Positions 4,300 to 54,368 of a stretch of DNA of 64,000 nucleotides are shown piece by piece. The number at the start of each line of letters is the position of its first letter. Positions within the stretch are counted from its first letter, which is position 1. This DNA is from Escherichia phage vB_EcoM_LNA4. The stretch lies in sequence record MZ311864.1, one strand, 5' to 3'. The translations under genes and the position numbers were made by a program. Below the pieces are notes generated by a model, which was not told the origin of the DNA, did not search any database, and was given only the letters and a program-made list of their open reading frames with translations.

Positions 4300-4503
4300 T
4301 TAAGATTTAGTAGCATCTAAGCCTCCACGTTTAAAGAACACTTTACGGACCCAATACCACACAACCGCCGGGGCTGAGAACACCAGGGCGAAACCGCCGA
4401 TAACGCCCAGTGTATCTTTAGCAGAAACTAAAGTTGGTACTGCGAACCCGAAGATGAAGCAAAGGAAAACAAATAAGCCAACACCATTCAGGTAATATTT
4501 CAT
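4300..4503 (-). CDS. small membrane protein
   Basis: 67-aa ORF with two hydrophobic helices. Confidence 0.4.
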   Translation of the reverse strand: MKYYLNGVGLFVFLCFIFGFAVPTLVSAKDTLGVIGGFALVFSAPAVVWYWVRKVFFKRGGLDATKS

Positions 4504-4838
4504 TATTGAGCACCTTCCGCAGCGGCTGGTTTGCCACGACCAAACAGAATATCTGCTTCGGTCATCTGCTCAACCTGCTCCTCAAGGTTTTTACGCTTTT
4601 TACCAGCCTGATACTGACGGTCAAACTCTGCTGCTACCAGCGTTTTGATGAATTTAGGATCGTAGTTGTGGCTGTCCTTTTCTACCGCAACGATGTCCTT
4701 GAACTGGCTCGCCGCATCTTTCTGGGCGATCTTCGCATCAACACCTTCCTGAATTACTTTCTTCAGGCGATCACGCTCTACTGGGTCAGAAGGCAGGGTG
4801 TTTTTCAGTTCTACTTTGATTTTAGGCATACGTGGCAT
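4503..4838 (-). CDS. hypothetical protein
   Basis: 111-aa ORF in the co-directional minus-strand gene string. Confidence 0.4.
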   Translation of the reverse strand: MPRMPKIKVELKNTLPSDPVERDRLKKVIQEGVDAKIAQKDAASQFKDIVAVEKDSHNYDPKFIKTLVAAEFDRQYQAGKKRKNLEEQVEQMTEADILFGRGKPAAAEGAQ

Positions 4839-12080: not shown

Positions 12081-12304
12081 TACAATCTCCTTTAACAATA
12101 CGAGCATTCTACATGAACAAAATCTGAAGTCAACCCCTTGACAGCACATTCCTGTTCATTCATACTGCGGTTCATCAAGTGAACGACTCTTTGATAGTAG
12201 AACATATAGATCATGCTAAAAGATCTTGTTTTTAGATCTTATGTTTTATTGTTTTTATAAAAGAGTATTGTTTTATTTATTTTATATAGTATTTATTTCT
12301 GTTA

Positions 12305-12344
12305 TCAATTTGAGACTAGGCTTAGTGTCAATTTGAGACTAAGC
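12305..12344 (+). promoter_or_regulatory. direct repeat TCAATTTGAGACTA(G/A)GCT x2, candidate operator upstream of the HTH gene
   Basis: Two near-identical 17-bp copies at 12305-12321 and 12328-12344, 15 nt before the ATG of the HTH ORF, inside the AT-rich divergent region. Confidence 0.4.
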
Positions 12345-12358
12345 TATGGAGGAGAGAC

Positions 12359-20560: not shown

Positions 20561-20599
20561 AGTTGTTGATATTTTTTGCTATAAATGATAAAATAACCC

Positions 20600-20628: not shown

Positions 20629-20646
20629 GAATAAGTGGGGTTAATT

Positions 20647-25950: not shown

Positions 25951-25958
25951 TTGACAAG

Positions 25959-25990
25959 GCCCTTATTTTATGATAAGGGCTTTATTTTTA
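25959..25990 (+). terminator. rho-independent terminator
   Basis: GCCCTTAT/ATAAGGGC 8-bp stem then TTTATTTTTA, right after the o-spanin stop. Confidence 0.5.
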
Positions 25991-26049
25991 TCAGGTTTCA
26001 TGGTAAACTACCTCCTATAGGCCAATTTAAGGCACAAAATGGAGGTCTT

Positions 26050-27549: not shown

Positions 27550-27564
27550 CAGAGGGGATAACTC

Positions 27565-29115
27565 GTGTCAACAAGATTTGCACAACCAGGGGCGGTTGTA
27601 AAGGCAGGGAATGAAAACCTTGCTGTTAGCCGCCTCCGTACCGGGGAATTAGGCTCTGGTGCTCTCTCCCAGCTTCGTGCAGAGTCCGAAGTGATGAAGG
27701 TAGAAGAGCTACGCTGGCCTTGCTTCCTAGCTACCGTAGAGGCGATGAAACAGGATCATACTGTCTCCACGGCGCTTGATACGAAATACGTATTCGTAAC
27801 CAAAGCATTCAACGATTTTAAAATCCTGTTTAATCGTGATAGTAAAGCTTCCAAAGATGCCGCAGAGTTTGTAGAGTACGCCCTGAAGAACCTTGCTAAC
27901 CAGCAAACTCTTCGTGACGTTGCTCGTAGTGCAGCAACTTTCAACGAATATGGTTTCTCCATCTTTGAGAAAGTATACCGTACTGAATCTGCTCCGTCAA
28001 AGTATGCAGGCTACATCACAATTGATAAGATTGCTTTCCGTCCTCAGTCAAGTCTTTCACGTTACAAACCTTGGGTTTTTGACGATGATGGTCGCACACT
28101 GAAAGGAATCTACCAAAGCAAACTGGCTTTTGCTAATTTCCAGAACGGACTGACTCAAGTATCATCTGCCATGACCTTGGTGACAAACTTAACATCCAAT
28201 GCTGATGAAGTGTTTATCCCAATCAACAAATTGATGGTTATGAGCCTTGGTGGTACAGAATCTAACCCGGCGGGTGTTTCTCCTCTGGTTGGGTGTTATC
28301 GTGCTTTCCGTGAGAAGATTCTGATTGAGAACCTTGAGACCATTGGTGCTTCTAAAGACCTCGGTGGTATCATCGAACTTAAAATCCCTTCTCAGATCCT
28401 GAACAAAGCGGCAATGGACCCTAAATCCCCAGAAGCTGATATGGTTCAAGGATTAATGGCTGACGCTGCAAACGCACACGCAGGTGAGCAGGCTTACTTC
28501 ATCCTCCCTTCAGATATGAACGCTCAGGGTGGGGAACAGTACAAGATGGCCCTCAAAGGCATTGACGGTGCTGGTAAGCAGTATAGCACACAAGAATTGG
28601 TGAACTCACGTAAGAAGGCGATCCTTGACCGCTTTGGTGCTGGCTTCATTAACCTTGGTAACGATGGTCAGGGTTCCTACAACCTGTCAGAATCCAAGCA
28701 ATCTATCCACGGTCACTTCGTTCAACGCGATATCGACATCATTGTTGAAGCGTTCAACAAGAACCTGATCCCACAGCTTCTGGCACTGAATGACATTCGT
28801 CTTTCTGATGAAGACATGCCAAAACTGAAGCCAGGTCTGATTCAAGAAGTGGATATGGAAGGCTTCTCTAAATTTGTTCAGCGTATCGGTGCTGTTGGAT
28901 ATCTTCCTAAGACTCCTACAGTTATCAACAAGATCCTTGAGGTCGGTGGCTTCGATGAAGAAATCCCGGAGGACATGTCCACTGAAGAACTTATGAAGCT
29001 GCTCGGAGAGGATACTAGCCGCTCCGGTGATGGTATGGGTGCAGGCACATCCGGAAATGGAACAGCGAAAATCTCTTCGAAAAGAGACAATTCTACTTCC
29101 AATATGGATAATTAA
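27565..29115 (+). CDS. portal protein
   Basis: 516-aa ORF immediately downstream of the large terminase; GTG start with AGAGGGG Shine-Dalgarno; assigned by position and size. Confidence 0.5.
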   Translation: MSTRFAQPGAVVKAGNENLAVSRLRTGELGSGALSQLRAESEVMKVEELRWPCFLATVEAMKQDHTVSTALDTKYVFVTKAFNDFKILFNRDSKASKDAAEFVEYALKNLANQQTLRDVARSAATFNEYGFSIFEKVYRTESAPSKYAGYITIDKIAFRPQSSLSRYKPWVFDDDGRTLKGIYQSKLAFANFQNGLTQVSSAMTLVTNLTSNADEVFIPINKLMVMSLGGTESNPAGVSPLVGCYRAFREKILIENLETIGASKDLGGIIELKIPSQILNKAAMDPKSPEADMVQGLMADAANAHAGEQAYFILPSDMNAQGGEQYKMALKGIDGAGKQYSTQELVNSRKKAILDRFGAGFINLGNDGQGSYNLSESKQSIHGHFVQRDIDIIVEAFNKNLIPQLLALNDIRLSDEDMPKLKPGLIQEVDMEGFSKFVQRIGAVGYLPKTPTVINKILEVGGFDEEIPEDMSTEELMKLLGEDTSRSGDGMGAGTSGNGTAKISSKRDNSTSNMDN

Positions 29116-29181
29116 TTTCAACTTACTGAAATAGCTTGCAAAAGAAAATGAACGGTGTTAAAATAACTATCAACGGGGAAA

Positions 29182-31270: not shown

Positions 31271-32284
31271 ATGGCAGTAGTACGCACTAATGACTTCCAG
31301 ATCGTCGATCTCGGCGCTACTCTGGAAATCGTACCACGTCAGTACCGTCTGATCACCAACATGGACCTGTTCACAGCGTACCACGGTGTAACGACTGTCG
31401 CTCAGGTCGAACGTGTTGATGAAGTTGTAACTGACTTCCCGGCTCGTCGTCGTCAGGGTGAACGTAACTACGTTGGTACTGAAAAGGCCCAACTGAAAAA
31501 CTTCAACATTCCGTTCTTCCCACTGGATCGCCAGATCACAGCGGCAGACGTGCAGAACTTCCGTAAGTATTTTACTGCTGACGCTCCGAAGTCTGTAGAG
31601 GATGTTGTTGCTCGTGTGGTTAAACGCATCCGTATCTCTCATGAACAACTGAAAGAAAAAGCAATGCTTCAGGCGATCATGGGTAAATCCTGGGCACCAC
31701 AGGACCCAACTGCTCAGTACAACTACTTCACCGAGTGGGGTGTTACTCAGCACACAGCCAACATCGACTTCACCGATGTAGCAACCGATCCAACCGACAT
31801 CATCGAAGCTGACGCTCGTGCGTACATCATCGACAATGCTGGTGACAACGGTAACAACTACGGCATCGTAGTTCTGGCTTCTCGTAAGTGGTTCTCAGCG
31901 CTGATCGCTCACCCGCTGGTAATGAACGCTTACCAATACTACGCTTCTACCCAAGAGCCGCTTCGTCGTCGTCTTGGCCAGGGCCAAGAAAACGCCAACA
32001 ACCGTATGTTTGTTCACAAGAACGTAACTTACATCGAGGATATCTCCAACTACATCCCTGATGGTGAAGCTTACATTCTGCCGCAAGGAATCGACGACAT
32101 GTTCCAGATTCACTATGCACCAGCAGATGACGTTCGTGAAGCGAACACTCCTGCACAGGAACTGTACCTGTGGTACAAATCTTCTGCATACCTGCGTGAA
32201 GAAAAGGTTGAGTCCGAAACTTCCTTCCTGACTGTTAACACCCGTCCGGAACTGGTTGTTCGCTCTACTGGTACTTTCGCATAA
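31271..32284 (+). CDS. major capsid protein (lambda E-like)
   Basis: 337-aa ORF with strong Shine-Dalgarno, followed by a very strong terminator; resembles the lambda gpE family by eye. Confidence 0.7.
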   Translation: MAVVRTNDFQIVDLGATLEIVPRQYRLITNMDLFTAYHGVTTVAQVERVDEVVTDFPARRRQGERNYVGTEKAQLKNFNIPFFPLDRQITAADVQNFRKYFTADAPKSVEDVVARVVKRIRISHEQLKEKAMLQAIMGKSWAPQDPTAQYNYFTEWGVTQHTANIDFTDVATDPTDIIEADARAYIIDNAGDNGNNYGIVVLASRKWFSALIAHPLVMNAYQYYASTQEPLRRRLGQGQENANNRMFVHKNVTYIEDISNYIPDGEAYILPQGIDDMFQIHYAPADDVREANTPAQELYLWYKSSAYLREEKVESETSFLTVNTRPELVVRSTGTFA

Positions 32285-32309
32285 GATAGCGTAACTGCTA
32301 CCTCTAAGA

Positions 32310-32346
32310 GGGGGAGGTGATTATTCACCTCTCCCTTTTTCTTTTT
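32310..32346 (+). terminator. strong rho-independent terminator
   Basis: 10-bp stem GGGGGAGGTG/CACCTCTCCC, loop ATTATT, then TTTTTCTTTTT. Confidence 0.7.
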
Positions 32347-32417
32347 CGTCACCTTAATAATAGCCACTTCATCAATGGTGTCAAGTGGTTTTTACTAAGG
32401 TAACCAATGGAGATTTT

Positions 32418-35578: not shown

Positions 35579-35592
35579 GGGGCTTCGGCCCC
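35579..35592 (+). terminator. GGGGC-TTCG-GCCCC hairpin (weak T-run)
   Basis: Member of the repeated UUCG-loop hairpin family, after the collagen-like gene. Confidence 0.35.
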
Positions 35593-37139: not shown

Positions 37140-37160
37140 AGGCCCTTCGGGGCCTTTTAT
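37140..37160. terminator. bidirectional terminator hairpin AGGCCC-TTCG-GGGCCT
   Basis: Hairpin flanked by an A-run on one side and a T-run on the other, between convergent genes. Confidence 0.5.
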
Positions 37161-37561
37161 TTTAGGAGTGGCCTAACACCCGCTTCCATGTTCACGTTTA
37201 CCATTGGCTCTTTACCATCTTTGTAATATGTGCAGATGTATGCCCCCTTAAAACCTTGGGTCCCATACAGGATTGCAACATCATTCAAATATTGATACCC
37301 CTCTGTTTGTTCCGTGATTTCATTCATCTCTCCGGTCTGCACTACAGATACACCGGGTTTAAATGCCTTACGAAATGCTTGATCGCAAGAGAGCCGCACA
37401 AGACGATGAATGCTCGCTGTCTTTTCTTCTTTTGATAACCAGCTTGTCTCGATAGATCTTAGGTTGTCTTGGTCTGGGTGCTTCATGATATAGGTGGTAG
37501 TGACCAAAGCTGCAACAACAGCACCAACAACCAATGCAACAATTCCCTTAGTATTCTTCAT
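37157..37561 (-). CDS. membrane-anchored protein on the opposite strand (moron-like)
   Basis: Only minus-strand gene inside the plus-strand structural module; N-terminal transmembrane helix; its own upstream AT-rich region. Confidence 0.45.
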   Translation of the reverse strand: MKNTKGIVALVVGAVVAALVTTTYIMKHPDQDNLRSIETSWLSKEEKTASIHRLVRLSCDQAFRKAFKPGVSVVQTGEMNEITEQTEGYQYLNDVAILYGTQGFKGAYICTYYKDGKEPMVNVNMEAGVRPLLK

Positions 37562-37630
37562 AAAATGTTCTCCTGTATTCGTTAATTACCATTACGATAA
37601 CACGTTAGATCAGTCTGTCAAGCGTTTTTA

Positions 37631-37659
37631 ATGACAAATAGAATCTTTTATGATAAGAT
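37631..37659 (+). promoter_or_regulatory. promoter-like ATGACA-N17-TAAGAT
   Basis: -35-like at 37631-37636 and -10 at 37654-37659, upstream of the ORF at 37696; overlaps a TATGATAA motif. Confidence 0.4.
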
Positions 37660-38232: not shown

Positions 38233-38261
38233 TTGATTTTGCTAAGATAATGTGGTAAAAT
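38233..38261 (+). promoter_or_regulatory. promoter-like TTGATT-N17-TAAAAT
   Basis: -35-like at 38233-38238, -10 at 38256-38261, 12 nt upstream of the GTG start at 38274. Confidence 0.4.
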
Positions 38262-39190: not shown

Positions 39191-39720
39191 TGGCAGGATT
39201 CACCAATTCCGATGAGATCTTTGATGCCCTGACAAAAACTGTAGGTTCTTTCTGCAAAGAAACAACAGGCCGAAAAGTTGTACTGGCAGGTGAAGATGAG
39301 ATCCCAAAAATTGATGGTGAATTCATTCTTGTAGACCTTACAGCAGTTGACCAGATTGACTGGCAGGCTGATGAAGGTTTGGATGCTAACGGCAATGCAA
39401 CGACGATTCACAACTATGAGGTTGTGTATACGCTCACAGCATATCGTGGAAAAGCTCCAAGCGCTCTTAGTAGGGTTTTACAGGCGATGAACTTACCATT
39501 CATTTACGATAAATATTTTCCGACCAATTCTCCTTTTGCATACTCATCCTCTTCGACGATTTCTCGTCTGAGAGTGCCTCTGAATGTGCAGAAGTTCGAA
39601 AACCGTGCTGTGGTGCTGATTACGTTCAACGTATGCTTCATCGAAACAGACACCGGAGCTTTCGAGGACCTGGAGAAGATCAACGCTCAACTCGTTTATC
39701 ACTTTCCGGATCAAGACTAA
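39190..39720 (+). CDS. hypothetical protein
   Basis: 176-aa ORF, start overlapping the upstream stop. Confidence 0.4.
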   Translation: MAGFTNSDEIFDALTKTVGSFCKETTGRKVVLAGEDEIPKIDGEFILVDLTAVDQIDWQADEGLDANGNATTIHNYEVVYTLTAYRGKAPSALSRVLQAMNLPFIYDKYFPTNSPFAYSSSSTISRLRVPLNVQKFENRAVVLITFNVCFIETDTGAFEDLEKINAQLVYHFPDQD

Positions 39721-39770
39721 AGAAAACCACTCGGTTATTGATAAGCATTCGCTTATTAGTGATCGTATAA

Positions 39771-39786
39771 GAGGGCTTCGGCCCTC
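39771..39786 (+). terminator. GAGGGC-TTCG-GCCCTC hairpin
   Basis: UUCG-loop hairpin family member between 39720 and the sheath gene. Confidence 0.3.
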
Positions 39787-39850
39787 ATAATACAGCACAA
39801 AGAGGTGCTGGTCAATAACTGTATGTACAGAAATAAAGAAGAGGAAACCG

Positions 39851-41740: not shown

Positions 41741-41815
41741 GTGTTTCGTGTGCCACATGGACGTGGCCTTTCACACACGTAAGGATCTCTCAATCTCAAA
41801 GACGCAGGAGCGTAC

Positions 41816-42620: not shown

Positions 42621-45014
42621 ATGGCGAACATTATTGTTACCCAGACAGTCAACAAGGTTGTTTGGGATGTTGATAAGACATCCTACGGACGCGCTCTGAA
42701 AGCCGTCAAGTCTTTGAAGACAGAATGGGAAAAAGCTGGTAAGGCGTTCTCTGCCAGCAAGTCCGACCCCGCAGCAGCACTAAAGCGTTCAGCAATGCAA
42801 GCTCGCCTTGTCAACAAAAGACTGCAACAGACTGAACGTGCTGAACAAGCAAAGACCACAGCCCACAATATCGCGATGGCGAAGAAAGAGGCTCGTGCTC
42901 GTGAAGCAATTGATAAGATCCAAAGAGCACGTAGGAAACAAGCTGTAGCCCAGCTTACAGCAAAACGCTCACCAGAGTCTCAGGCTGATTATAATGGACT
43001 AAAAGCTCGTCTGCGTCAAATGGAAAAAACAGGGGGTGGTTACGGTACTAATCCTGCAATTTCCGCTGCACGTCAAGCTGCACTGCAAGAAGAACTGGCT
43101 CGCCGTTCTAAATCAGGAAACGCTTCAGGTATGGTTGGTAGTGGTACTGCCTCTGATCCGGCACTGATTGCTCGTCAAAACCGTGCAATGCAACAGCAGG
43201 TCCAGCGTCAACAGCAGAAAGCATCCAGAGAGCAACTTCGTGCTCGTGAACAAGCTCGTAAGAAACAAGAGGCAGAAGACCTTCGTTACTCTCGTTATCT
43301 TGCAGGTAAAGAATCTACCGTAGCCAACGCTGCTGTACGTCTTCGTGCAAAATATGGTGATAACTACGCAACGAAACTCAAGGGTTTCGACTCCTTGAAA
43401 GAAAGATTCCTTGACAGCAACACAATGAAGTCTTCTAACTTCCGTGCTGAACTTGCTGCTATGGAGACCGGGCTTCGTAAAGCAAATCAGAACACCCTCT
43501 CCCTGACAGATGGGCTGAAGAACCTGCGTAGCACACTAGTCAGTGTCACTGCTGCTTACGGAGCATTCAACGCTGCTGCAAGTGTTGTAAGAACAGGTCA
43601 GTTCTTCCAGGGTATGGAGGCCACTATGTTGATGGTTTCTGATAACTCAGAGGAGGCTGGTAAGCGCATGAAGTTTGTCCGTGACCAGTCCTACCGTTTA
43701 GGTCTTGATCTTAAGGTAGCGGCACAGGGTTACACGCAGATGGCTATCGCTGCTGACGGTGTTCTGAGTAAATCACAGAACGATGAGTTGTTCAAGTCTT
43801 TCTCTGAGTATGCAACAGCCCTACAGGTTGACCCGGTTAAATACCAACGTGGTATTACCGCGATTCAACAGATGATGGGTAAGGGTCAGATCATGGCTGA
43901 AGAACTTAAGCAACAACTTGCGGAAGGTATTCCGGGTTCTTTACAGGTGTTCATTAAGGCTTCTCAAGAAGCATTCAATGACTCCACCATCGACGTAACC
44001 AAGATGCTCGACATGATGCAGAAGGGTGAGTTGAAGGCTGCTAAAGTTCTACCGTTCGTTGCCAAGTATTACTCTCAAGCTGCAAATAAGGGTGGCGCTC
44101 TACAGACCGCTCTGAAAGGTAACCGTGTTGCAATGCAGCGCCTGACGCTGACATGGATGGACTTCCAGAACAAGGTGTTTGCAAGTGGTTTTGGTGACTC
44201 ATTAACTGAAGCTTTCAACGAACTCTCAAAAATTCTTGACTCCAACGGGCCTTTGGCTCAGAATCTGGGTCAATTCTTCAAGGGGTTCACTGATGGGTTC
44301 ATGTTTATGGTCTACACTGTCTACAACACCTTTGTCCTCATCCAGGGGATCATGGAGCGCTACATCCCGATCTTCCGTAAAAACGGTGAAGAACTTTCCT
44401 CTGCATGGAAATGGGTTGGATGGGGTCTTGGTGCTCTGTTCTTTGCTTCTGCACTTTTCCGTGTGTTCAACATTCTATCCAAAATTGCTGGCCTTTCCGG
44501 AGCACTCGGCTTCCTGAAGACCATCTTTGGTGGCCCTGATGATGAGGAAGGCGGTGGCGGCGATGGTAAGAACAAGAATCGTAAAGGCCCTCGTTTCGGT
44601 AAGTTTGGTAAGGCTGCTCGCTGGTTTGGTCTTTACGGACTAATTGCCGGGGAGAGTATGCTTGCTGGTGATTGGGTGTTCGACCAAGCCCAGGACTACA
44701 GCGACAAGACCTACGGAACTGAGACCACCGCAGGTGGTAACCTTAAGAAAAACTCTTGGATGGGTCAGACGTGGGACTTCATCACAGGACAGAGATCAAT
44801 GACTGACCAGCGCAGACTTGATTATCTGAACCAGAATGGTATGGTTCCTGGACCAGCAGGGGCAGCAACACCTCCGATGGTCATTCCGACAGAACCTGTT
44901 AACGGTGAGATTACGATCAAAATCGACGCAGGCGAAATGAAGAACATGATTGACCAGCAGATTGAAGCTGCGAACATGGGTAACATCAACCTAATCCTTG
45001 GTGTTCCTCAATAA
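42621..45014 (+). CDS. tape measure protein
   Basis: 797-aa, Ala/Gln/Arg-rich coiled-coil N-terminal half, hydrophobic segments (WVGWGLGALFFASALF) and a Gly-rich region near the C-terminus; follows the frameshifted chaperone. Confidence 0.7.
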   Translation: MANIIVTQTVNKVVWDVDKTSYGRALKAVKSLKTEWEKAGKAFSASKSDPAAALKRSAMQARLVNKRLQQTERAEQAKTTAHNIAMAKKEARAREAIDKIQRARRKQAVAQLTAKRSPESQADYNGLKARLRQMEKTGGGYGTNPAISAARQAALQEELARRSKSGNASGMVGSGTASDPALIARQNRAMQQQVQRQQQKASREQLRAREQARKKQEAEDLRYSRYLAGKESTVANAAVRLRAKYGDNYATKLKGFDSLKERFLDSNTMKSSNFRAELAAMETGLRKANQNTLSLTDGLKNLRSTLVSVTAAYGAFNAAASVVRTGQFFQGMEATMLMVSDNSEEAGKRMKFVRDQSYRLGLDLKVAAQGYTQMAIAADGVLSKSQNDELFKSFSEYATALQVDPVKYQRGITAIQQMMGKGQIMAEELKQQLAEGIPGSLQVFIKASQEAFNDSTIDVTKMLDMMQKGELKAAKVLPFVAKYYSQAANKGGALQTALKGNRVAMQRLTLTWMDFQNKVFASGFGDSLTEAFNELSKILDSNGPLAQNLGQFFKGFTDGFMFMVYTVYNTFVLIQGIMERYIPIFRKNGEELSSAWKWVGWGLGALFFASALFRVFNILSKIAGLSGALGFLKTIFGGPDDEEGGGGDGKNKNRKGPRFGKFGKAARWFGLYGLIAGESMLAGDWVFDQAQDYSDKTYGTETTAGGNLKKNSWMGQTWDFITGQRSMTDQRRLDYLNQNGMVPGPAGAATPPMVIPTEPVNGEITIKIDAGEMKNMIDQQIEAANMGNINLILGVPQ

Positions 45015-45019
45015 TTTAA

Positions 45020-45041
45020 AGGGGCTTCGGCCCCTTTTTTA
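45020..45041 (+). terminator. rho-independent terminator AGGGGC-TTCG-GCCCCT + T6
   Basis: Immediately after the tape measure stop. Confidence 0.65.
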
Positions 45042-45095
45042 TTGTTTTATCTCAAGATTTATGATAAAATCGTAACATGTATAATGGGAGGACTT

Positions 45096-45968
45096 ATGGC
45101 ATTTGTATCCAACAACCAGTCCAAACCGCAACAGGGCAAGGCCACGGCTAACGTCGAGAAAAAGGTCAGTACAGCCCAGGAAGCCAGCGGTGAGGTGCAA
45201 TATACGCTCTTCGCCAGTGGTCTTAACTACGGCGGTAGAAACGTAGAGCTAAAGGACAAAAACTACACCAACGACCTCGCGATCATTTTCGACGTTGTTG
45301 AACAACACTCTTACACACGCACAGTTGATAAGACATCGTATGCTGTTGAAGAAAAGGTAAAATTCAGTGACCACGGTGTTATTGAGGATGGTAAATTCTC
45401 TTTCAGTGCCAGAGTTAACTCATCTCCTGTTTACCTGATCGAAAACAACTACCTTGACAAAGATACTGACGATCAAAACCCGGTTGCATCTCGTCGTCCA
45501 GAGAAGGCTCTGGAGATCCTTGAGAGACTGATTACTGACCGTCAGATTGTTACCCTTGTCACTGAAGACAAAATCATTGAGAACTATATCCTTACCTCGA
45601 TGGAGGCCGCTCGCAGCAACTCTGATGGTGCTGCTCTGGTATTCCAGCTTGAATTTACAGAGTTCCGTACATTCACCCTCGGTAAGACAGCCCTCGCAAC
45701 GGTGTACTCAGACCCTAAAAAGTCTGGTGGTAAGACCAAGCAGAAGGGTTCTCAACAATCTTCAGCAACAGACAACGAGGTTGAAGTAACAGCCCGACGC
45801 ACTAACTTTGCAGGCCCAAACAAAGATGGCTGGCAGAAGATTGCAGAGGGAATGGACTCAGGCAACTTCACCAAACAAGACCAGGTTATCGGCACACTTA
45901 CCCCGGATGGTAAAATCCGTGGTGCTGACGGGTCTATCATGGACTACAACAAAGCAGTGGGGAACTAA
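45096..45968 (+). CDS. tail protein
   Basis: Track ORF trimmed to ATG 45096 (GGGAGG Shine-Dalgarno); TATAAT at 45080-45085 upstream. Confidence 0.4.
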   Translation: MAFVSNNQSKPQQGKATANVEKKVSTAQEASGEVQYTLFASGLNYGGRNVELKDKNYTNDLAIIFDVVEQHSYTRTVDKTSYAVEEKVKFSDHGVIEDGKFSFSARVNSSPVYLIENNYLDKDTDDQNPVASRRPEKALEILERLITDRQIVTLVTEDKIIENYILTSMEAARSNSDGAALVFQLEFTEFRTFTLGKTALATVYSDPKKSGGKTKQKGSQQSSATDNEVEVTARRTNFAGPNKDGWQKIAEGMDSGNFTKQDQVIGTLTPDGKIRGADGSIMDYNKAVGN

Positions 45969-46318
45969 TGTCAGCTATTACTTTCTCATGGGACATTGAC
46001 GGGTTCGCTGACCAGACCATGCGTGTGGTTCTGGACAGTCAGACCTATGAAATGCGCTTCCAATGGAACGAGCGAGATGAGTCTTGGCTCGTTTCCTTTG
46101 GTGATGTTGGTCAAACGCCAACAATCTCTTTTAAACTCACAACAATTTTCGACATCTTTGCCCCTTTTAAATATCTGGAGAACATCCCCTCCGGGCAACT
46201 GCGTGTCTTTTCTTTTACACAGTCAACCAAACGCGTTGGTAGATACAATATCGGATTCCTGTCTGACTTGCAACTCCTTTATTCATCTCCTGACGAAGAG
46301 TTAACTGGCGAGGAGTAA
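45968..46318 (+). CDS. hypothetical tail protein
   Basis: 116-aa ORF, ATGA overlap with the upstream gene. Confidence 0.4.
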   Translation: MSAITFSWDIDGFADQTMRVVLDSQTYEMRFQWNERDESWLVSFGDVGQTPTISFKLTTIFDIFAPFKYLENIPSGQLRVFSFTQSTKRVGRYNIGFLSDLQLLYSSPDEELTGEE

Positions 46319-46320
46319 TC

Positions 46321-47310
46321 ATGCCTTCTTACAGAACACGAACATTCAAACTCACAATCGGCAAGCCCGTGTACATCGGGCAAAAGCCGACTAACATCTC
46401 TGACTACACCAACCAAAACACGAAAGATGCGTATGTCGTTAGTAATGAAACTGGCGCTGCAAACATCGAGTTTGAGGTGAAGAAAGATAACTCAAAAGAC
46501 CCTAACAAGGGGTATGTTACCCTTTACAACCTGTCTGATGAAACAGTAAGTTATCTCGATGCTAACCAGCGTGAGTCAATTGCCATTGTTCTGGAGGCAG
46601 GTTTTGATGGGGAAAACCAGACAATCTTTTCCGGGACAGTTGAATTTGTTCAGGATAAGTGGGATGGTCATACTCGCCAGACGAAGATGATCCTTGGTGA
46701 TGCAACGACCAACATTATGACGGCTAAGACTGCGAGATCTTACAAGAAGGGTACACCTATGGACACGGTGCTTAATGACCTTATTTCCGACTTGAAACTC
46801 CCTATTGGTAAGGTGGTTAAGTTCGGTAATCAAACTCTCCAGCAGTCAATGGCTTTTACCGGGAACGCTGCAAACAACCTTGAACGCTTGGCAAAGAACA
46901 CAGGTTCTACTTTCAGCGTTCAGGACGGTGCTGTGTATTGGACCACACAGGGGAAGCGTTTCCGTAATGCTGTTTTTGAAATCAGCGCGGAATCTGGGAT
47001 GCACGACTCACCAACCCCACAAAACCCGGAACCAGCAAAGCGCCGTCTTGAGAAAAAGAAGAAGTCTAAGAGCAAGCCAAAGACTAATAAGGGTCCTAGC
47101 CGTGCTGAGATCAAGGAAGACGCAGGTCTTGTTGTGGTAACAGAACTGAACGGTGCGATCATTCCTGAAAGCACGATCTATTTAAAAAGCCAGAAGTACA
47201 CAGGCTTCTACAAGGTAGTTTATCTTACCCATAAAGGCCAACTTGAAGGTGGTGATTGGGTGTCTGAAATCGGCCTTGCTGAAACCCGTGGCGGCATTGT
47301 GGAGGAATAA
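46321..47310 (+). CDS. tail/baseplate protein
   Basis: 329-aa ORF with a basic KRRLEKKKKSKSKPK segment. Confidence 0.4.
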   Translation: MPSYRTRTFKLTIGKPVYIGQKPTNISDYTNQNTKDAYVVSNETGAANIEFEVKKDNSKDPNKGYVTLYNLSDETVSYLDANQRESIAIVLEAGFDGENQTIFSGTVEFVQDKWDGHTRQTKMILGDATTNIMTAKTARSYKKGTPMDTVLNDLISDLKLPIGKVVKFGNQTLQQSMAFTGNAANNLERLAKNTGSTFSVQDGAVYWTTQGKRFRNAVFEISAESGMHDSPTPQNPEPAKRRLEKKKKSKSKPKTNKGPSRAEIKEDAGLVVVTELNGAIIPESTIYLKSQKYTGFYKVVYLTHKGQLEGGDWVSEIGLAETRGGIVEE

Positions 47311-48011
47311 TGGCATCAATTCAACGTATGGATGCTGCACTAAACCAATGGTTTGCTCGTCAGGCTCGTGATATCCACACAGGCCTGAGAGCCAGGGTTG
47401 TGGATGTGGATTATAATGTACCATCAGCAACCGTACAACCACTGGCTTCAACTAACTTCGATGATGGCACCGTAGACGCTTATCCTGCTGTTTTTGACGT
47501 CCCCCTGTCCATGCCTTCGGCTAACGGGGGAAAGGCTCGCCTGACGCTTCCTGTGAAGCCTGGTGATGTTGTAGGACTATCATTCTCTGAACGTAATGAG
47601 GGTGATGCAAATGACACGACAACCCACGGACTTTTTCCTGGTTGGTCAATCATTGGTGTACACAGTGATGGAAACGCGATGACCATTCACCCGGACAACG
47701 TGGAGTTATGGAACGACACTGTTCATTTCTCAATGACTCCGGAGGGGGACTTTACTTTAACAGGTCCACAAGGGACTTTCAAGGTAGATAAATCTGGTCA
47801 AATGCAATTCACAAACGGTGCTGCAACCTTGACAGCAAAGAGTGATGGGAATATCGAAATGAATGGTGCAAAGATCACCCCTGACGGGAACTTAATCACC
47901 GCCCGTGGTGTTAACATGAACGATTTCTATGATTACTTCATGCGACACACCCACCACTACACCTGGACGGACGGCTCTGGTCAGAGCGATACTGCCCGAC
48001 CTAACGCATAA
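47310..48011 (+). CDS. baseplate central spike protein (gpV-like)
   Basis: 233 aa; C-terminal His cluster HTHHY compatible with metal-binding spike tips; position upstream of baseplate genes. Confidence 0.4.
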   Translation: MASIQRMDAALNQWFARQARDIHTGLRARVVDVDYNVPSATVQPLASTNFDDGTVDAYPAVFDVPLSMPSANGGKARLTLPVKPGDVVGLSFSERNEGDANDTTTHGLFPGWSIIGVHSDGNAMTIHPDNVELWNDTVHFSMTPEGDFTLTGPQGTFKVDKSGQMQFTNGAATLTAKSDGNIEMNGAKITPDGNLITARGVNMNDFYDYFMRHTHHYTWTDGSGQSDTARPNA

Positions 48012-48020
48012 GGGGAATAA

Positions 48021-48638
48021 ATGGCAACTCTTTATTCTGACCTTCTAATGGACCCGGTTACTGGAGACCTTGATGTCTCCACGGGTCTTCAGATCATTGA
48101 GTCCAACCAGACAAGCCTCCGTCAAAGACTATGGCTTCGCTTCAACATCTGGGCTGGAAACTGGTATTTCGATGAGACTTTTGGTTTCCCATACCGAACA
48201 TATCTGAGCAAGAAGGTAATGAAAACTGTCCTTGACAACAAGATCAAGGAAGTGACCCGTCTTGAGCCTGACGTGCTTGAGATCACCTCATTCCACTCTT
48301 CAATGGATCGTACAACACGTAGTTACCAGGCCTTCTTCGAAGTAACAACTAAAGAGCAAGAGGTTGTAAGACTTGCTTTCGTAGGGCAGGATGAGTATTA
48401 TTACCCAATCCCTGATGAAGGTGCAACGGTTCTTTGTGACGACGATGGTTGGATTACGTGGGCTAACAAGCTTTACTACCTGATCAACTTCCGTCTGCCT
48501 CGCACTGGCGATGCTACATGGTGGAACACTTGGGCTGGTACGGATATTGATAACCCAATTCCGGTCGGTAGCCTGATGGATGACAAGAACAACGTCATCA
48601 CCACTGAAGATGGCAAGTCCATTAACCGTAACCACTAA
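48021..48638 (+). CDS. baseplate protein
   Basis: 205-aa ORF in the baseplate module. Confidence 0.35.
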   Translation: MATLYSDLLMDPVTGDLDVSTGLQIIESNQTSLRQRLWLRFNIWAGNWYFDETFGFPYRTYLSKKVMKTVLDNKIKEVTRLEPDVLEITSFHSSMDRTTRSYQAFFEVTTKEQEVVRLAFVGQDEYYYPIPDEGATVLCDDDGWITWANKLYYLINFRLPRTGDATWWNTWAGTDIDNPIPVGSLMDDKNNVITTEDGKSINRNH

Positions 48639-48648
48639 GGGGTAAATA

Positions 48649-49323
48649 ATGGCAGATGTTGCATTTCCAACAGTGAAGGTCTCTGACCTTCCTACTGCCG
48701 TCACCGTTTCCGGTGGCGATTTTGTTGTTACCGATCAGTCAGACACAACCAGAAAAGCTTCGCTGGACACAATTGTTTCCAAAATGAGCTTGACAAGAGT
48801 TGTGTTTTTTGCTGAGGGGGGTTATCTTGAGTCCAAAAAAGACCTCGCCTTCTTCGCAACTGATGGAAAATATTACACATGGAATGGGACTTACCCGAAG
48901 ACAATTCCAATGTCTTCATCCCCTGCGACAACCGGGGGAATTAGTTCTAATGCTTGGCAAGAGTTTGGTGCAAGTGGTGGAGGTAGCTCTACAGGTAAGG
49001 TTGTTAATTTAGGGAGCGTCCAGGGGACTGCAACCTGTAACCTTTCTCTTGGAGATACTTTCGTTGCTAATCTTACCTCCGGGCAGTGTGTGGTTGGTAT
49101 CACCAACCCATCTACCGCCCAAGGTATTTCCCAGACTTTCCAGTTATCTTTGACCCAAGGGACAGGTGCAAATCTCGTTTCATGGCCTAGTAACATTAAG
49201 TGGAACTATGGGCGAGAGCCAGTTCTTTCATACAAAACCGGAGTACGAGACATCTTCCAGTTCGTCACCTATGACGGGGGGAATACGTGGTTCGGCTCCC
49301 TCATTATGGCAGGAGTTGAGTAA
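48649..49323 (+). CDS. tail protein with conserved N-terminal anchor domain (short paralogue)
   Basis: N-terminal ~110 aa closely parallel those of the ORF at 52122 (PTVKVSDLPTA, GDFVVTDQSD.TRK, YTWNGTYPK). Confidence 0.4.
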   Translation: MADVAFPTVKVSDLPTAVTVSGGDFVVTDQSDTTRKASLDTIVSKMSLTRVVFFAEGGYLESKKDLAFFATDGKYYTWNGTYPKTIPMSSSPATTGGISSNAWQEFGASGGGSSTGKVVNLGSVQGTATCNLSLGDTFVANLTSGQCVVGITNPSTAQGISQTFQLSLTQGTGANLVSWPSNIKWNYGREPVLSYKTGVRDIFQFVTYDGGNTWFGSLIMAGVE

Positions 49324-52112
49324 TGGCAAAGTTAAGCCACAACATTGATAATGTGTTTCAGTTGATCGACGGACACATTCAGTTTCTTCAGAGAAACACC
49401 GGAGAGACAATCGATCCTACGGTTCAGCACTATATCCTGAACTTACAAAATGTTCTGGCTAACAACCGCCACTTCATCAACTGGACGGCGCAGGAAGCCC
49501 AACCAAATGGTGACGCAACAACCGAGGGTCAGTCAGTGCTGATCCTCGGCTGTGCTTATGCGTATCTCGCGTCTAATGACCCGAAATACCTTGAACTCGC
49601 AGAGGCCTATTGGCAGGCATATATCGACTGGTTCTTTGCGGGTCAGCCAATTCCTGATCCCCCTGCGGTATATCGCCCTAACTGGATCATTAATGGAAAA
49701 GAACCCCGCCTTGCTCACTACCCTCTTACCGATGATGGGTATCCAACCCACGGTGGTTTTAAGGGAAGTGTAATGTCATGGACAAACGGAAGAACCCTGA
49801 TCCCGCATGGCGCTCCTAATTGGGGTGAGTACCTTGACAAAGCTTGGTTTGCTTTTGACGGCAACCTTGGGTGGAACTCTGTCAACGCCACGGTGTATAA
49901 AGAAAACCCAGATGGAAGCACCAACTGGAATGAGTACGGTTCACAGTGGGATGTAGACTGGATCATTGATCGTCTGGGACGCAAGGTTGACTGGGATGGT
50001 AACATTCTCGAAGAGGGTCTTCCTGAATCCCAGTGGGGAACTGTTCAACTGAAGGATACCACAATCACGGGCAATTACAAGTTCAACTATGCGACATGTA
50101 ACCCTGTTGAGCATGGTGGATATCTGATGGGTAGAAATACCATGTGGCACAACCGCCCGGTTAACGTACCTATTGAAATGGGCTTCCAGGATAATGCCTC
50201 TGACGCAGAAACTTGGTGGTGCGATGCAAACTACGTGATGTATCAGATCACCGGGGAAAGAAAATACTGGCTTTGCTGGCAGTCTTCACTAATCGTCTGT
50301 GATAACTATTCAGATATCGACCGTTTTGACAAGTTCTTCCGTAAGTCAACATTCGCGACAATCCCATTCACCGACGGGATCAGTTATGACTACTCATATC
50401 CGTCAACGGCAATTCCTCAGTATTCTCGTGATTCTGATGGGTATATCGGTATTCGCCAAACTGTAGCAGCGCAAACTACCCTTGAGCAACAGGCAATCTG
50501 GTTCCGTGTTGACGGCACTTCAAAGCTCCGTGTTCAGTTCTCAGGGAAAGATGATGCTGGCAATGGGCTGCTATTCAGGCCAGAGCTTGATCTTAATAAA
50601 ACAAAATCTGAAACCGGAAGAGTAACCTATCGTTGTGGTCTTCCACGCGGTACAGACTCTATCGTTTCTATGGATATCCCCCTCTCAAACTTCGTGAGAC
50701 TAACCCCTCCGGGGGGCGGCAGTTACATTGTAGCAGACCCGCGTATTGTTGTTGATTGGGGATCTAACACGGTTATTGACTTCCAGTACCAGACAGGTAT
50801 CCTTGGAAGAATCAATGACCAAGCTTGTACGCTTGTGACCGATGCAGATGGTGGATGCACTATTGGTTTCTGGTTAACAGATACCGAGACCGCCGATCTT
50901 TCAGCGTTCACATACCGTTCTTATGCAGACAATTTTAACATTACCATCACCGACGACAACCTGTGGAGATGGTGGGCTATGGTTCCTGCGACCAACGGGG
51001 ATTGGACAACGCTCCAGTTGTCTCCGTCAAACTTTGTACTCAGCAGTTACCAACCCGACCACCCGGAAACAGATCCTAAACCAAACCAGATCAGTCTTCA
51101 CAATCTGAAGCAGATCAACTTGGCACCGGACACAGATCCGGTTGATGGTGTTAGCGCGAAGATCGACTGGTACTGTATCAACGCAGTTCCTGAGTTATAC
51201 ACCTCCACAGGTGGTGATGACTACACGATGTATTTCCGTATCACCGTGTCCGGGGACAACGCGTACAATGCTAAACTGGGCGACTGCACGATCATCGACT
51301 ACAAGACTAACAGCCTGTATTACACCCCAGGGTTGATTCCATTCTCTAACATTAGTGACCCTAACACGGCACTTTATGATGGGTGGCGAGGTCTTCCATA
51401 CCCAGGATATCAGTACCCAACCCTGTACTGCTTCAAAGGCCAGAATATCGACTGGACAAGGTTGAATAGTACGATTGATTTCCTGTACGACTCACAGATG
51501 TGGTTTTATAACACATTCCACCCTGTTATGCCGGGGCCTATGGCACAGGCATTTGTATGGGATCGATGGGATGCCCGTAAATATGGTCAACCAAACACCT
51601 TCACCATGAAACACTGGAACGAGAAGGCTTGGGACGGCTATGAGGCTCGTGCTTTCTTCTGTGTGTGTCGTTGCATCTATGAACTCTCTCAGCGTGGTGA
51701 GTCCATTCCTAGCAAGCTATTTACTGTTGCGAAGAACTGGGTTGATTATCTGAAGTGGTTCCAAGACAACAACGAGGGCCGTACCCCAACAATCTTTAAC
51801 CCTGACGGTACTGTTCTGGCACCAGAGGATGACTTTACAAGCCACATGTCAGCGTTGTTCATGGGTGGTTGCTCCATCCTCGGAATGGCGGGGATGCGTA
51901 ACCGTATTCCTAATATTGACATTGTGGCGGAGCGTTGTTTCAGTCTGATCCAAGAGAACTACATCATTCTTACTGCCAATCACCCTATGAATGGTAGCTG
52001 GTCTGTTGCCCCTCGTGCAGATACTGACAATGGGATGTTCTTTGGCTTCCATGCTGGGGAACTGTTACGAGGATTTGGACTGTATGCTATGTACAGAAAC
52101 CTTACAAGATAA
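49323..52112 (+). CDS. large tail protein (929 aa), function unknown
   Basis: Trp/aromatic-rich ORF between two anchor-domain genes. Confidence 0.4.
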   Translation: MAKLSHNIDNVFQLIDGHIQFLQRNTGETIDPTVQHYILNLQNVLANNRHFINWTAQEAQPNGDATTEGQSVLILGCAYAYLASNDPKYLELAEAYWQAYIDWFFAGQPIPDPPAVYRPNWIINGKEPRLAHYPLTDDGYPTHGGFKGSVMSWTNGRTLIPHGAPNWGEYLDKAWFAFDGNLGWNSVNATVYKENPDGSTNWNEYGSQWDVDWIIDRLGRKVDWDGNILEEGLPESQWGTVQLKDTTITGNYKFNYATCNPVEHGGYLMGRNTMWHNRPVNVPIEMGFQDNASDAETWWCDANYVMYQITGERKYWLCWQSSLIVCDNYSDIDRFDKFFRKSTFATIPFTDGISYDYSYPSTAIPQYSRDSDGYIGIRQTVAAQTTLEQQAIWFRVDGTSKLRVQFSGKDDAGNGLLFRPELDLNKTKSETGRVTYRCGLPRGTDSIVSMDIPLSNFVRLTPPGGGSYIVADPRIVVDWGSNTVIDFQYQTGILGRINDQACTLVTDADGGCTIGFWLTDTETADLSAFTYRSYADNFNITITDDNLWRWWAMVPATNGDWTTLQLSPSNFVLSSYQPDHPETDPKPNQISLHNLKQINLAPDTDPVDGVSAKIDWYCINAVPELYTSTGGDDYTMYFRITVSGDNAYNAKLGDCTIIDYKTNSLYYTPGLIPFSNISDPNTALYDGWRGLPYPGYQYPTLYCFKGQNIDWTRLNSTIDFLYDSQMWFYNTFHPVMPGPMAQAFVWDRWDARKYGQPNTFTMKHWNEKAWDGYEARAFFCVCRCIYELSQRGESIPSKLFTVAKNWVDYLKWFQDNNEGRTPTIFNPDGTVLAPEDDFTSHMSALFMGGCSILGMAGMRNRIPNIDIVAERCFSLIQENYIILTANHPMNGSWSVAPRADTDNGMFFGFHAGELLRGFGLYAMYRNLTR

Positions 52113-52121
52113 GAGGAATTA

Positions 52122-54260
52122 ATGGCAGAACTATTACCTACCGTCAAGATTTCGGACCTGCCGACTGCGACGGATTCTTTCGAGGGAGATTTTCTGGTTG
52201 TTGACCAATCGGATGCTACACGTAAATCCACATGGTCAAGCCTGTTTTCCCGCTTCGGTGTTATGCGTATGTTCTCATTCCAGGATGGTGGTACGCTGAC
52301 CTCCGCTAAGGACCAGGTAATTGACCGAACAACCAACAAGGTATACCAGTGGACGGGGACTTACCCTAAGCTGGTCCCTGCTAACTCAACCCCGGAAAGC
52401 ACCGGGGGTGTTGGCACCGGAGGGTGGTCAGTTAACGATCCTTCTCTCCGTGGAGACCTTGCCGGGATCAACGGATCAACCTACGTTGGTGGCCCTGCGG
52501 GTACGGTGGCACAATCCCTTGATGGGTTTGTAACACCCTCTCAGTTTGTTGGGAAATACCCATCAACAAGTGAAGCAGTAACTGCAATGGTTGCTTATGC
52601 GAAAACCAACAAGAAAGCTATTCTGGCTTGGGGCTGGGAACTGACACTAGAGACAAGTGTTTACATCGACGGTGTAGAGTGGTATGGTGGTGCATTCAAC
52701 CAGTCCGGCGGTAACCGCTATATGTACTTGTCAAACAGTACATTCCGTTGGACTACCTTTACTGGGGTTTGTACCCGCCACTACGGTGGGCGACTGATCA
52801 TCACTGATTCTGCTTGGTTAAACAACACAAACACAGCAGCAATGCTGATTCAGGCACTCCCTGTTGATGGTACAATTGACATTCTTGACAGTGATTTCCG
52901 TGGGTGTAAATACGGTATCCTGCAACAAGGTACTGGCGCTCTGATCACCCGTGCTCGTTTTGCTCGACTGAACTTCAATGATTTGACAGGCGATGCGATT
53001 GAGTGTAACGTTGTTAACCGTCACTACAAAGCGGGTGGTTTGACAATCGAAGATATCAACATTGACAATATCAACAACACAGACAACTCTCCTAACTGGG
53101 GTATCGGTATCGGTGTTGCTGGTCAGGGTCCATACGGTGCCAACGCTTCCGATGACCAGTACGTCAGTGGGATCATCATTCGTAACGTCAAGATGCGCCG
53201 TGTACGTCAGTGTATCCACTTCGAACTTTGCCGAGATTTCAAGGTAGAGAACGTAGAGGTTTACCCGGACGCTTCCGTTTCTAACGGTACACTTCTGGCA
53301 TCGGGCGGTGTTGTTTGCTACGGCTCTAAAGACTTCATCATTGATGGTGTTCGTGGAGAGATGGTTAATGGTGCAACACGCTTCATTTACTTTGGTTGGG
53401 GTGTTAACGCCGGAACATATGCTGCTCCGTGTCGTGACTTTACGTTGAGAAACGTTAGAACCCACACTGGGCTGGTAGACATCCCTGTGAGTGCCAGAGA
53501 TGACTGGACTAACACTGTGACGGTTGAGGATGTCGAGTGCGACACCTTCAAATACCGTGGTCTTGTTTCACGTCTTCGTCTTGCAGACATCCGTTGCAAT
53601 CTCTTTGATGGTATCGGTGACTACGAGGCAGGCCAAGGTGAGGCAGGTGGGGCTATGAAACGCTGGGCTTGGTGTTCTGCCGAGATCCTGAATATCAACA
53701 GCCTTGATGCTAACGGTGTTGCGAACGGTAGTTTTGGACAGGTTGGCTTCGACCATGTTACGACATACGGTTGTAACTTTGACGTAGTTCAACACTCCAA
53801 GACAAATGGTAACCGTGGTGTTACACTGTTGAACGCTGGGAACATTTACATCGCTGATAACGACCTTTTCCCACAAGGTAAAGAGTTCGTGAAAGGTGAC
53901 ATCATTCTTAAAAAGACTGGTGGTTTATTCGTTGTTGAAACTGGAGGTTCCTACATTGAAGCAAATGACTTTATCCGTGCTACAACAGTCGGATCTAAGA
54001 CCATTCAATGTGCTGCCGATTCCGGAGTAAGTCAGCCTTGGGCGACTCGTGCGTTTAAATCCGCAGGTCTCCAGTTGACCATCCCAGGAGCAGGCGCTGG
54101 AGGTACAGACCTGAAGACAACCGTCATTCGCGCTCCATATCAAAACGGGGCCTGGACAACACCGTTCTATCTGGATATTGCTGATCCTATTCAGACAGCC
54201 ACTCCTGATAATACGGCTCTTGTTTCAACAAACCCGGTAGTATACAGCGAAAGGACTTAA
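52122..54260 (+). CDS. tailspike-like protein (N-terminal anchor + beta-helix-like body)
   Basis: 712 aa; N-terminus paralogous to the ORF at 48649; the body has many Gly/Asn/Val-rich repeats typical of beta-helix tailspikes. Confidence 0.45.
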   Translation: MAELLPTVKISDLPTATDSFEGDFLVVDQSDATRKSTWSSLFSRFGVMRMFSFQDGGTLTSAKDQVIDRTTNKVYQWTGTYPKLVPANSTPESTGGVGTGGWSVNDPSLRGDLAGINGSTYVGGPAGTVAQSLDGFVTPSQFVGKYPSTSEAVTAMVAYAKTNKKAILAWGWELTLETSVYIDGVEWYGGAFNQSGGNRYMYLSNSTFRWTTFTGVCTRHYGGRLIITDSAWLNNTNTAAMLIQALPVDGTIDILDSDFRGCKYGILQQGTGALITRARFARLNFNDLTGDAIECNVVNRHYKAGGLTIEDINIDNINNTDNSPNWGIGIGVAGQGPYGANASDDQYVSGIIIRNVKMRRVRQCIHFELCRDFKVENVEVYPDASVSNGTLLASGGVVCYGSKDFIIDGVRGEMVNGATRFIYFGWGVNAGTYAAPCRDFTLRNVRTHTGLVDIPVSARDDWTNTVTVEDVECDTFKYRGLVSRLRLADIRCNLFDGIGDYEAGQGEAGGAMKRWAWCSAEILNINSLDANGVANGSFGQVGFDHVTTYGCNFDVVQHSKTNGNRGVTLLNAGNIYIADNDLFPQGKEFVKGDIILKKTGGLFVVETGGSYIEANDFIRATTVGSKTIQCAADSGVSQPWATRAFKSAGLQLTIPGAGAGGTDLKTTVIRAPYQNGAWTTPFYLDIADPIQTATPDNTALVSTNPVVYSERT

Positions 54261-54267
54261 ATAACAA

Positions 54268-54288
54268 GGGGCTTCGGCCCCTTTTCTC
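54268..54288 (+). terminator. rho-independent terminator GGGGC-TTCG-GCCCC + T-run
   Basis: Immediately after the tailspike stop. Confidence 0.6.
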
Positions 54289-54368
54289 ATTATAAGCCTT
54301 TATAATTAAATCACAATATGATAAAATAGCAACATCTTAGAGCAAAAATCTAGCAAGAGGAGGCGTTC

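Follow-up and report, generated by a model that had tools for sequence, protein, structure and literature searches.

Probable sigma-70 extended -10 promoters at two late-operon boundaries of Escherichia phage vB_EcoM_LNA4

Results

The present analysis concerns two short motifs in a 64,000-nt stretch of the genome of Escherichia phage vB_EcoM_LNA4 (MZ311864.1), referred to below as the window, whose positions are used throughout unless another genome is named. The motifs, TATGATAAAATCGTAACAT at 45060-45078 and TATGATAAAATAGCAACAT at 54317-54335, had been proposed in an earlier reading of the letters alone (the sequence-only reading) as a phage-specific late promoter or an activator-binding motif, and both are present where that reading placed them. 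The window belongs to a Seunavirus (Vequintavirinae, rV5/PVP-SE1 group), with 93.7% identity to Cronobacter phage GAP31 across 12 kb, and orthology of its late genes was assigned from the PVP-SE1 record notes together with the rV5 map. The PVP-SE1 record annotates terminators in the late region and no late promoters there.

Each motif lies between an intrinsic terminator and a co-oriented structural operon, as the earlier reading had described. In the intergenic region 45015-45096, the tape-measure gene (identified on the map from annotated relatives) is followed by a terminator at 45018..45043 (+), a AAAGGGGCTTCGGCCCCTTT hairpin with a UUCG loop and a T-run (-13.5 kcal/mol), then by the motif at 45060 and by a gene beginning at ATG 45097, the homologue of PVP-SE1 gp56 and rV5 gp048, which leads into the baseplate-hub operon. 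In the intergenic region 54261-54368, the tailspike ("colanic acid degradation") gene is followed by a terminator at 54266..54289 (+; AAGGGGCTTCGGCCCCTT with a T-rich tail, -12.7 kcal/mol), by the motif at 54317 and by a baseplate-J/wedge gene (GTG 54369) homologous to rV5 gp036, with tail-fibre genes beyond it. Both terminators are GGGGCUUCGGCCCC hairpins with U-runs. An identical hairpin, GGGGCTTCGGCCCC, occurs three times in the late region, at 35579-35592, 45021-45034 and 54269-54282, the copy at 35579 having a weak T-tail. The region 54261-54368 also contains a minus-strand match, TTGTGA-16-TATAAT.

The functional unit within the two motifs is read here as an extended -10 element, TRTGnTAAAAT(A), with ATGATAAAAT parsed as TG-A-TAAAAT. 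At both sites the TAAAAT hexamer agrees with the -10 consensus TATAAT at five of six positions, among them the A at -11 and the T at -7. At the first site, the predicted promoter P45062, the extended -10 T-A-TG-A-TAAAAT occupies 45060..45070 (+; -10 hexamer 45065-45070), and a -35-like hexamer, TTGTTT, lies 17 bp 5' of the -10 hexamer at 45042..45047 (+), where TTGTTTTA is kept in five genera. From sigma-70 geometry, transcription would be expected to begin at 45077 (+), which is the A of CAT and lies 7 nt past the -10 hexamer, giving a 5' untranslated region of 20 nt with the Shine-Dalgarno sequence GGGAGGA before ATG 45097. At the second site, the predicted promoter P54319 of the baseplate-J/wedge gene, the extended -10 TATGATAAAAT occupies 54317..54327 (+; hexamer 54322-54327), the -35-like hexamer TTTATA is again 17 bp 5' at 54299..54304 (+), and the predicted start, again the A of CAT, is 54334 (+), with a 5' untranslated region of 35 nt before GTG 54369. 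P45062 and P54319 are each 10-20 bp 3' of the intrinsic terminator. A TATAAT at 45080-45085 was considered as the real -10 and rejected: the start would fall inside the Shine-Dalgarno sequence, there is no -35 at 17 bp, and the hexamer is TCTATT in FENT2, the most divergent Seunavirus, and absent from other genera.

These two sites belong to a larger predicted family with at least seven promoters in the window. Exact TGnTAAAAT occurs nine times, and five of the copies (20586, 29156, 38253, 45062 and 54319) are intergenic, on the coding strand and before genes, four of the five with an A directly after the element. One-mismatch relatives lie before the terminase gene (TGGTAAACTA at 26001) and before the open reading frame (ORF) at 37696 (TGATAAGATA at 37651). 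Members are non-coding and co-oriented with the downstream gene, with a purine start predicted about 7 nt past the hexamer; of the seven window sites, all have TG one base 5' of the -10 hexamer and six have TT(G) at 17-bp spacing, and the hexamers end 17-41 nt 5' of the start codon. The layout they share can be written TTGnnn - 17 bp (ending TRTGn) - TAAAAT - A - 5 nt - A(+1), and a generic sigma-70 scan picks out four of the sites independently.

The TGnTAAAAT core is more than a chance occurrence. Sense-strand intergenic DNA (4,329 nt) holds five copies versus 0.19 in shuffles that keep composition, and late intergenic DNA (1,059 nt) holds four versus 0.05; none of 2000 shuffles reached five or four, respectively, and the enrichment is approximately 25- to 80-fold. 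Only six copies occur on the entire late plus strand (36.9 kb). The sequence-only reading had made its proposal depend on enrichment in intergenic DNA genome-wide, and such enrichment was found, in the window against the shuffles and in the reassembled 148-kb GAP31 genome, where seven of 17 copies are sense-strand intergenic before genes, five of those seven being in the structural region or before a virion-protein gene. On the GAP31 minus strand, TGATAAAAT copies at 39249 and 44462 precede genes, one of which is a virion structural protein gene.

The 8-mer that had been singled out as the core, TATGATAA, occurs seven times in the window versus 1.47 expected (seven was reached in 0 of 100 shuffles). 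It is intergenic at 25969, 37649, 45060 and 54317 and lies in coding sequence at 14140, 2026(-) and 62916(-), confirming the earlier remark that it also occurs within genes. The 8-mer was nonetheless rejected as a functional unit: FENT2 and PVP-SE1 have G in place of its A, three copies are coding, and the 25969 copy, which does stand before the terminase as reported, is no promoter element because it forms the loop and 3' arm of a terminator with a 12-bp hairpin at 25956..25983 (+; -15.9 kcal/mol, z -4.1), the loop of which differs in PVP-SE1. The 37649 copy, before the ORF at 37696, held up better, as a variant predicted promoter of the same family (TGa-TAAGAT). The similarity of the pair at 45060 and 54317 had been put at 18 of 20 positions with a conserved extension, G-AACAT; base-by-base comparison of the 20-mers gives 17 of 20, with mismatches at positions 12, 14 and 20. 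AACAT is kept in close relatives only (pEa56 and partly TH18, at the baseplate site) and is gone in BIS47, Kashira, CB7 and rV5, and its similarity is largely explained by the CA start site, the A of CAT being the predicted start. Outside the core the pair agrees at 9 of 12 positions (P approximately 0.002 per pair, approximately 0.04 over 21 pairs), and three of those nine are typical of the whole family; extra similarity beyond the core is borderline.

Among six Seunaviruses, the intergenic regions 45015-45096 and 54261-54368 are nearly invariant (approximately 99-100%), and flanking coding DNA has many synonymous differences. It is possible that these conserved regions might act as linkers for exchange of tail-fibre and tailspike modules. 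FENT2 retains T-TGATAAAAT, has G for the A of TATG at 54317, and has an AACAT shortened by one base at 45060. For comparison across genera, three orthologous intergenic regions were used (before baseplate-J, after tape-measure and before Neck1), with sequences from, besides Seunavirus, TH18, BIS47 (Mydovirus), pEa_SNUABM_56 (Henunavirus), Kashira, CB7 (Certrevirus) and rV5 (Vequintavirus), two of the genomes being unclassified, so that six or seven genera are represented. TG(G/A/C)TAAAAT is kept in every region (TGATACAAT in one rV5 site), where hardly any other block is invariant, and the flanks are near-random. When 20 sites were anchored on the -10 hexamer, TG was present in 20/20, TAAAAT in 19-20/20 and a trailing A in 15/20; the TRTGn form emerges from T at -17 (16/20) together with a purine at -16 (19/20, counted by reading rows); TT in 20/20 with a following G in 14/20, exactly 17 bp 5' of the hexamer, gives the TTG of a -35; A was at the predicted +1 in 15/20; and all other upstream columns were at or below 1.2 bits. 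Because neighbouring columns have drifted to near-random, the promoter columns are under constraint, and the predicted family is conserved throughout Vequintavirinae. The TRTGn form of the extended -10 element has reportedly been described by Voskuil & Chambliss 2002, a reference cited in PMC2613000, and by Mitchell et al. 2003.

The remaining predicted members vary in their -35 and in the base following TG. Before the Neck1/tail-completion gene, TTGATT-17-(TGg)TAAAAT-A at 38233..38261 (+) contains TGGTAAAATA, which is invariant in seven genomes. A T4 MotA box was considered for the TTTTGCT in this Neck1 promoter and rejected, sequence and spacing both misfitting by eye against the consensus. 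Between the portal and prohead-protease genes, TTGCAA-17-(TGt)TAAAAT-A lies at 29136..29164 (+). The variant member TTTATT-17-(TGg)TAAACT-A at 25981..26009 (+), with TGGTAAACT at 26001-26009, is the probable terminase promoter. The site at 37649 is the variant ATGACA-17-(TGa)TAAGAT-A at 37631..37659 (+), before the ORF at 37696; it is invariant among Seunaviruses and DNA 5' of its -35 is strongly divergent. Finally, TTGATA-17-(TGa)TAAAAT-A at 20566..20594 (+) lies in the transfer RNA (tRNA) cluster before the ORF at 20635 and is followed by a second predicted promoter, TTGACA-17-TGATAACAT.

Discussion

The 19-mers at 45060 and 54317 are probably the cores of sigma-70-type extended -10 promoters that restart late transcription via the host RNA polymerase. 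It is from the observed architecture, position, enrichment and cross-genus conservation that we infer initiation, the form of polymerase and the timing. Host polymerase with sigma-70 would be expected to bind because these phages encode no RNA polymerase, region 2.4 of sigma-70 reading TAAAAT, region 3.0 reading TG and region 4.2 reading the weak TTG of the -35, and initiation at the A of CAT (45077 and 54334) would yield short leaders with Shine-Dalgarno sequences. Since the promoters stand just 3' of terminators, transcription would be restarted at boundaries between late modules, by P45062 between the tape-measure gene and the baseplate-hub operon, and by P54319 between the tailspike gene and the baseplate-wedge and tail-fibre operon. 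A hairpin is present at the orthologous position after the tape-measure gene in all genera examined, with differing stems, and this conserved order of terminator then promoter suggests that the late region is split into separately initiated units. The late -35 is weak, with 3-4 of 6 consensus matches, yet its TTG is conserved, so the predicted promoters would be of a -35(partial)/TGn/-10 type and not strictly -35-independent. The promoter half of the earlier proposal is well supported by sites that are intergenic, co-oriented, 3' of terminators, close to start codons, strongly enriched and kept across genera, but the conserved unit is not phage-specific in sequence, being the canonical bacterial extended -10 element TRTGn-TAAAAT. 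Nor is the suggestion of an activator-binding motif supported: the dyad or separate box typical of activator sites is missing, and the layout is that of a sigma-70 holoenzyme promoter.

The motif has already been described for rV5. Kropinski et al. 2013 applied MEME to rV5 late-gene upstream regions and reported eight TggTAaAAtA copies as putative late promoters (PMC3606486, Table S4C), a motif that the window's TGATAAAATc and TGATAAAATa fit. The rV5 authors likened it to the T4 late box and found neither a phage polymerase nor homologues of gp33/45/55 (PMC3606486). Three of the rV5 promoters are positional orthologues of window sites: P036 of 54319 (baseplate wedge), P056 of 38253 (Neck1) and P048 of 45062 (after tape measure). 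The two sets share the sequence TG(g/a)TAAAAT(a) and orthologous late genes, and both are predictions only; they differ in genus (Vequintavirus versus Seunavirus), and the rV5 paper is silent on conservation of TTG at 17 bp, on the TRTG and on the +1 A. In rV5 P048, the MEME match TGTTGTAAAAAC is read here as the -35 region of a better predicted promoter, TTGTAA-17-TGATACAAT, (TGa)TACAAT (rV5 32019-32123, minus strand). The window is therefore a new genus-level instance of a described motif, with a sequence like that of any ordinary bacterial extended -10 promoter. The present analysis contributes the cross-genus footprint, the finding that the -35 TTG and the +1 A are conserved, and the recognition that the 25969 copy is part of a terminator. 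Among sigma-70 promoters, the TGn/-10 type is an established class (PMC2613000; PMC3950348). The window sites share with its members, such as E. coli galP1, the TG, a near-consensus -10, T at -17, a purine at -16 and a weak -35 (PMC3488240, PMC2613000), as well as a purine start about 7 nt downstream, although the textbook members are defined functionally and the window sites by sequence.

Several observations weigh against this reading. In the searchable literature no mapped transcript 5' ends were found for any member of Vequintavirinae, and the 20 aligned sites represent only three orthologous groups and are not independent. In GAP31, the minus-strand intergenic copies of TGATAAAAT (39241-39249 and 44454-44462, outside the window) have no TTG at 17 bp. 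In addition, TAAAAT-A is strictly invariant and the -35 uniformly weak in the late family, unlike the early promoters of these phages, and the contrast could reflect a dedicated recognition or regulation step. Early-class promoters, which occur in the window's replication and tRNA portion and in rV5 Table S4A, have an A-tract, a perfect TTGACA, a 16-18 bp spacer and a variable -10 (TATACT, TAGTAT, TAATAT and others), with TG in a minority only. The early consensus reported for Certrevirus, AAAA(N3-4)TGTTGAC(N17-19)TATAAT (PMC7344957), is from the same subfamily, is sigma-70-like and is of the type found in the early/tRNA part of the window; it differs from the late family in its strong -35, variable -10, optional TG and position before early or middle genes.

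The genome accordingly has one promoter class for early genes (-10/-35) and another for later genes (extended -10). A timing mechanism could be accommodated, but nothing pointing directly to one was found. It is possible, though we regard this as doubtful, that the invariant TRTGnTAAAAT-A with its weak -35 marks a dedicated Vequintavirinae late class, timed by a phage factor that remodels host sigma-70 polymerase. Such a late switch, if real, would be unrelated to T4 gp55/gp33/gp45 or MotA/AsiA and would operate in a large phage subfamily used for biocontrol. Two proteins are candidate timing factors: the Srd-like "sigma-70 decoy" protein GAP31_031, encoded outside the window, whose PHROG matches are to the families "decoy of host sigma70" and "Srd anti-sigma factor", and a 111-aa predicted protein at 4503-4838(-), which matches phrog_639, "transcriptional regulator". 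Pfam and PDB searches with the latter gave nothing significant (best PDB match E = 0.16, a UPF0335 protein, 6cfx). By product names, none of 266 GAP31 genes is called sigma, late-transcription factor, gp55/33/45 or AsiA-like.

Among other explanations, recognition of a dedicated late promoter by host polymerase carrying a phage specificity factor (a cryptic gp55-like sigma or a co-activator), as at the T4 late box TATAAATA, appears unlikely. In both systems an A/T-rich -10 motif precedes virion genes of a large virulent myovirus, and the invariant TAAAATA does resemble TATAAATA, as the rV5 authors noted (PMC3606486); the late class is moreover distinct from the TTGACA early promoters, and the GAP31_031 and phrog_639 matches would provide possible factors. 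The box itself, however, is absent from late intergenic DNA, both of its only two window copies being within genes. The window has TAAAATA preceded by TGn and a -35 TTG, and the conserved TTG at exactly 17 bp and the TRTG correspond to sigma-70 region 4 and region 3 contacts, which T4 late promoters lack. One family member lies in the tRNA cluster and not before a virion operon, and the gp33/45/55 homologues of such a system are neither reported for rV5 (PMC3606486) nor named among the GAP31 products.

Still less probable, in our judgment, is that sigma-70 extended -10 promoters come to dominate late in infection because a phage protein disables -35 recognition, as do T4 AsiA and P23-45 gp39, with the effect that host and early promoters dependent on TTGACA are shut off. 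Two clear promoter classes in one genome would fit such a mechanism, and there is precedent, in that TGn/-10 promoters resist AsiA and gp39 and middle/late promoters in phage P23-45 are extended -10 (PMC2613000; PMC3950348). Thermus phage P23-45 likewise has no polymerase of its own and uses extended -10 promoters for later and -10/-35 promoters for earlier genes, the former being switched on by gp39, with T4 AsiA analogous (PMC3950348). In contrast to P23-45, late promoters here keep the -35 TTG, and TT at the -35 in 20/20 aligned sites argues for continued use of the region 4 contact; the GAP31 record annotates neither an AsiA nor a gp39 homologue; and the rV5 authors considered that polymerase modification may not occur, sigma-70-like promoters being found genome-wide (PMC3606486). 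The conserved TTG would thus argue against both the T4-late and the AsiA/gp39 type of mechanism.

That the motif is a site for a phage DNA-binding regulator, an activator or repressor, and not a polymerase element is highly improbable. The motif is short, invariant and intergenic, and the window encodes a small predicted regulator, but the motif has neither dyad symmetry nor a repeat, its central base (the n of TGn) is unconstrained, and conservation tracks sigma-70 contacts at each position, down to the 17-bp distance from TTG and the A at the start site. Inspection of the opposite strand for IHF or DnaA boxes gave no match. An RNA-level signal in read-through transcripts (a processing site or translational operator), chance AT-rich sequence or a duplicated terminator-promoter cassette is scarcely credible: the motif does lie between a hairpin and a ribosome-binding site, with the same GGGGCTTCGGCCCC hairpin before both copies, but start-codon distance varies over 17-41 nt, an Rfam scan of the whole window found tRNAs only and no RNA family in the motif regions, the Neck1 motif is conserved without a preceding hairpin, chance is rejected by shuffles that never reach the observed counts, and the hairpin-to-motif spacing of 25 versus 34 nt, with unrelated intervening DNA, speaks against duplication.

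Reading the sites as sigma-70 extended -10 promoters reveals no new mechanism. It does turn the "T4-late-like" motif published for rV5 into a complete sigma-70 extended -10 architecture conserved across genera, and it provides a late-region transcription map for GAP31/PVP-SE1-like phages, with predicted starts and operon boundaries, where database records have no promoters. Such a map could be used in engineering biocontrol phages, for example in swapping receptor-binding modules between the two promoters, and in designing reporter or 5'-end-mapping experiments.

Other sites in the window

Three minus-strand promoter matches were seen in or near the late region. At 37594-37621(-), TTGACA-16-(TGt)TATCGT, preceded by an A-tract, is likely the promoter of a membrane-protein gene (37157-37561) that stands alone on the minus strand, and it is divergent from the plus-strand promoter at 37631-37659; Seunaviruses differ strongly in the DNA that separates the two promoters. 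In the intergenic region 32285-32417, AAAACCAC-TTGACA-16-TATTAT at 32357-32384(-) (11/12 matches) is of early type, antisense to late genes and directed toward the major capsid gene; it is invariant in six Seunaviruses and may be an antisense early promoter. TTGACA-17-(TGt)TAAAGT at 27543-27571(-), at the terminase/portal junction, is also antisense to late genes and may be a chance match, since it overlaps the portal ribosome-binding site.

Two late intergenic regions contain hairpins without a U-run. The region 39721-39850, before the tail-sheath gene, has no TGnTAAAAT and contains instead the hairpin AGAGGGCTTCGGCCCTC, in which PVP-SE1 and SSE121 show compensatory changes (GGGGGCGCAAGCCCCC) and which could be a stabiliser or processing structure for sheath mRNA; 5' of it is a small palindrome, ATAAGC-N4-GCTTAT, with a variable loop. 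The region 41741-41815, between the tail tube and chaperone genes, has a long conserved hairpin, CGTGTGCCACATGGACGTGGCCTTTCACACACG. At the corresponding position rV5, and not the Seunaviruses, has a promoter, TTGACA-17-TGGTAAAAT (P051).

The AT-rich divergent intergenic region 12150-12358 contains two copies of a 14-bp direct repeat, TAGTCTCAAATTGA, adjoins a gene called "replication initiation protein" in GAP31, and could be either a replication origin or a region of divergent early promoters. The offset between window and GAP31 coordinates shifts by approximately 1.1 kb between window positions 4159 and 44000, reflecting either extra DNA in GAP31 or loss in the window.

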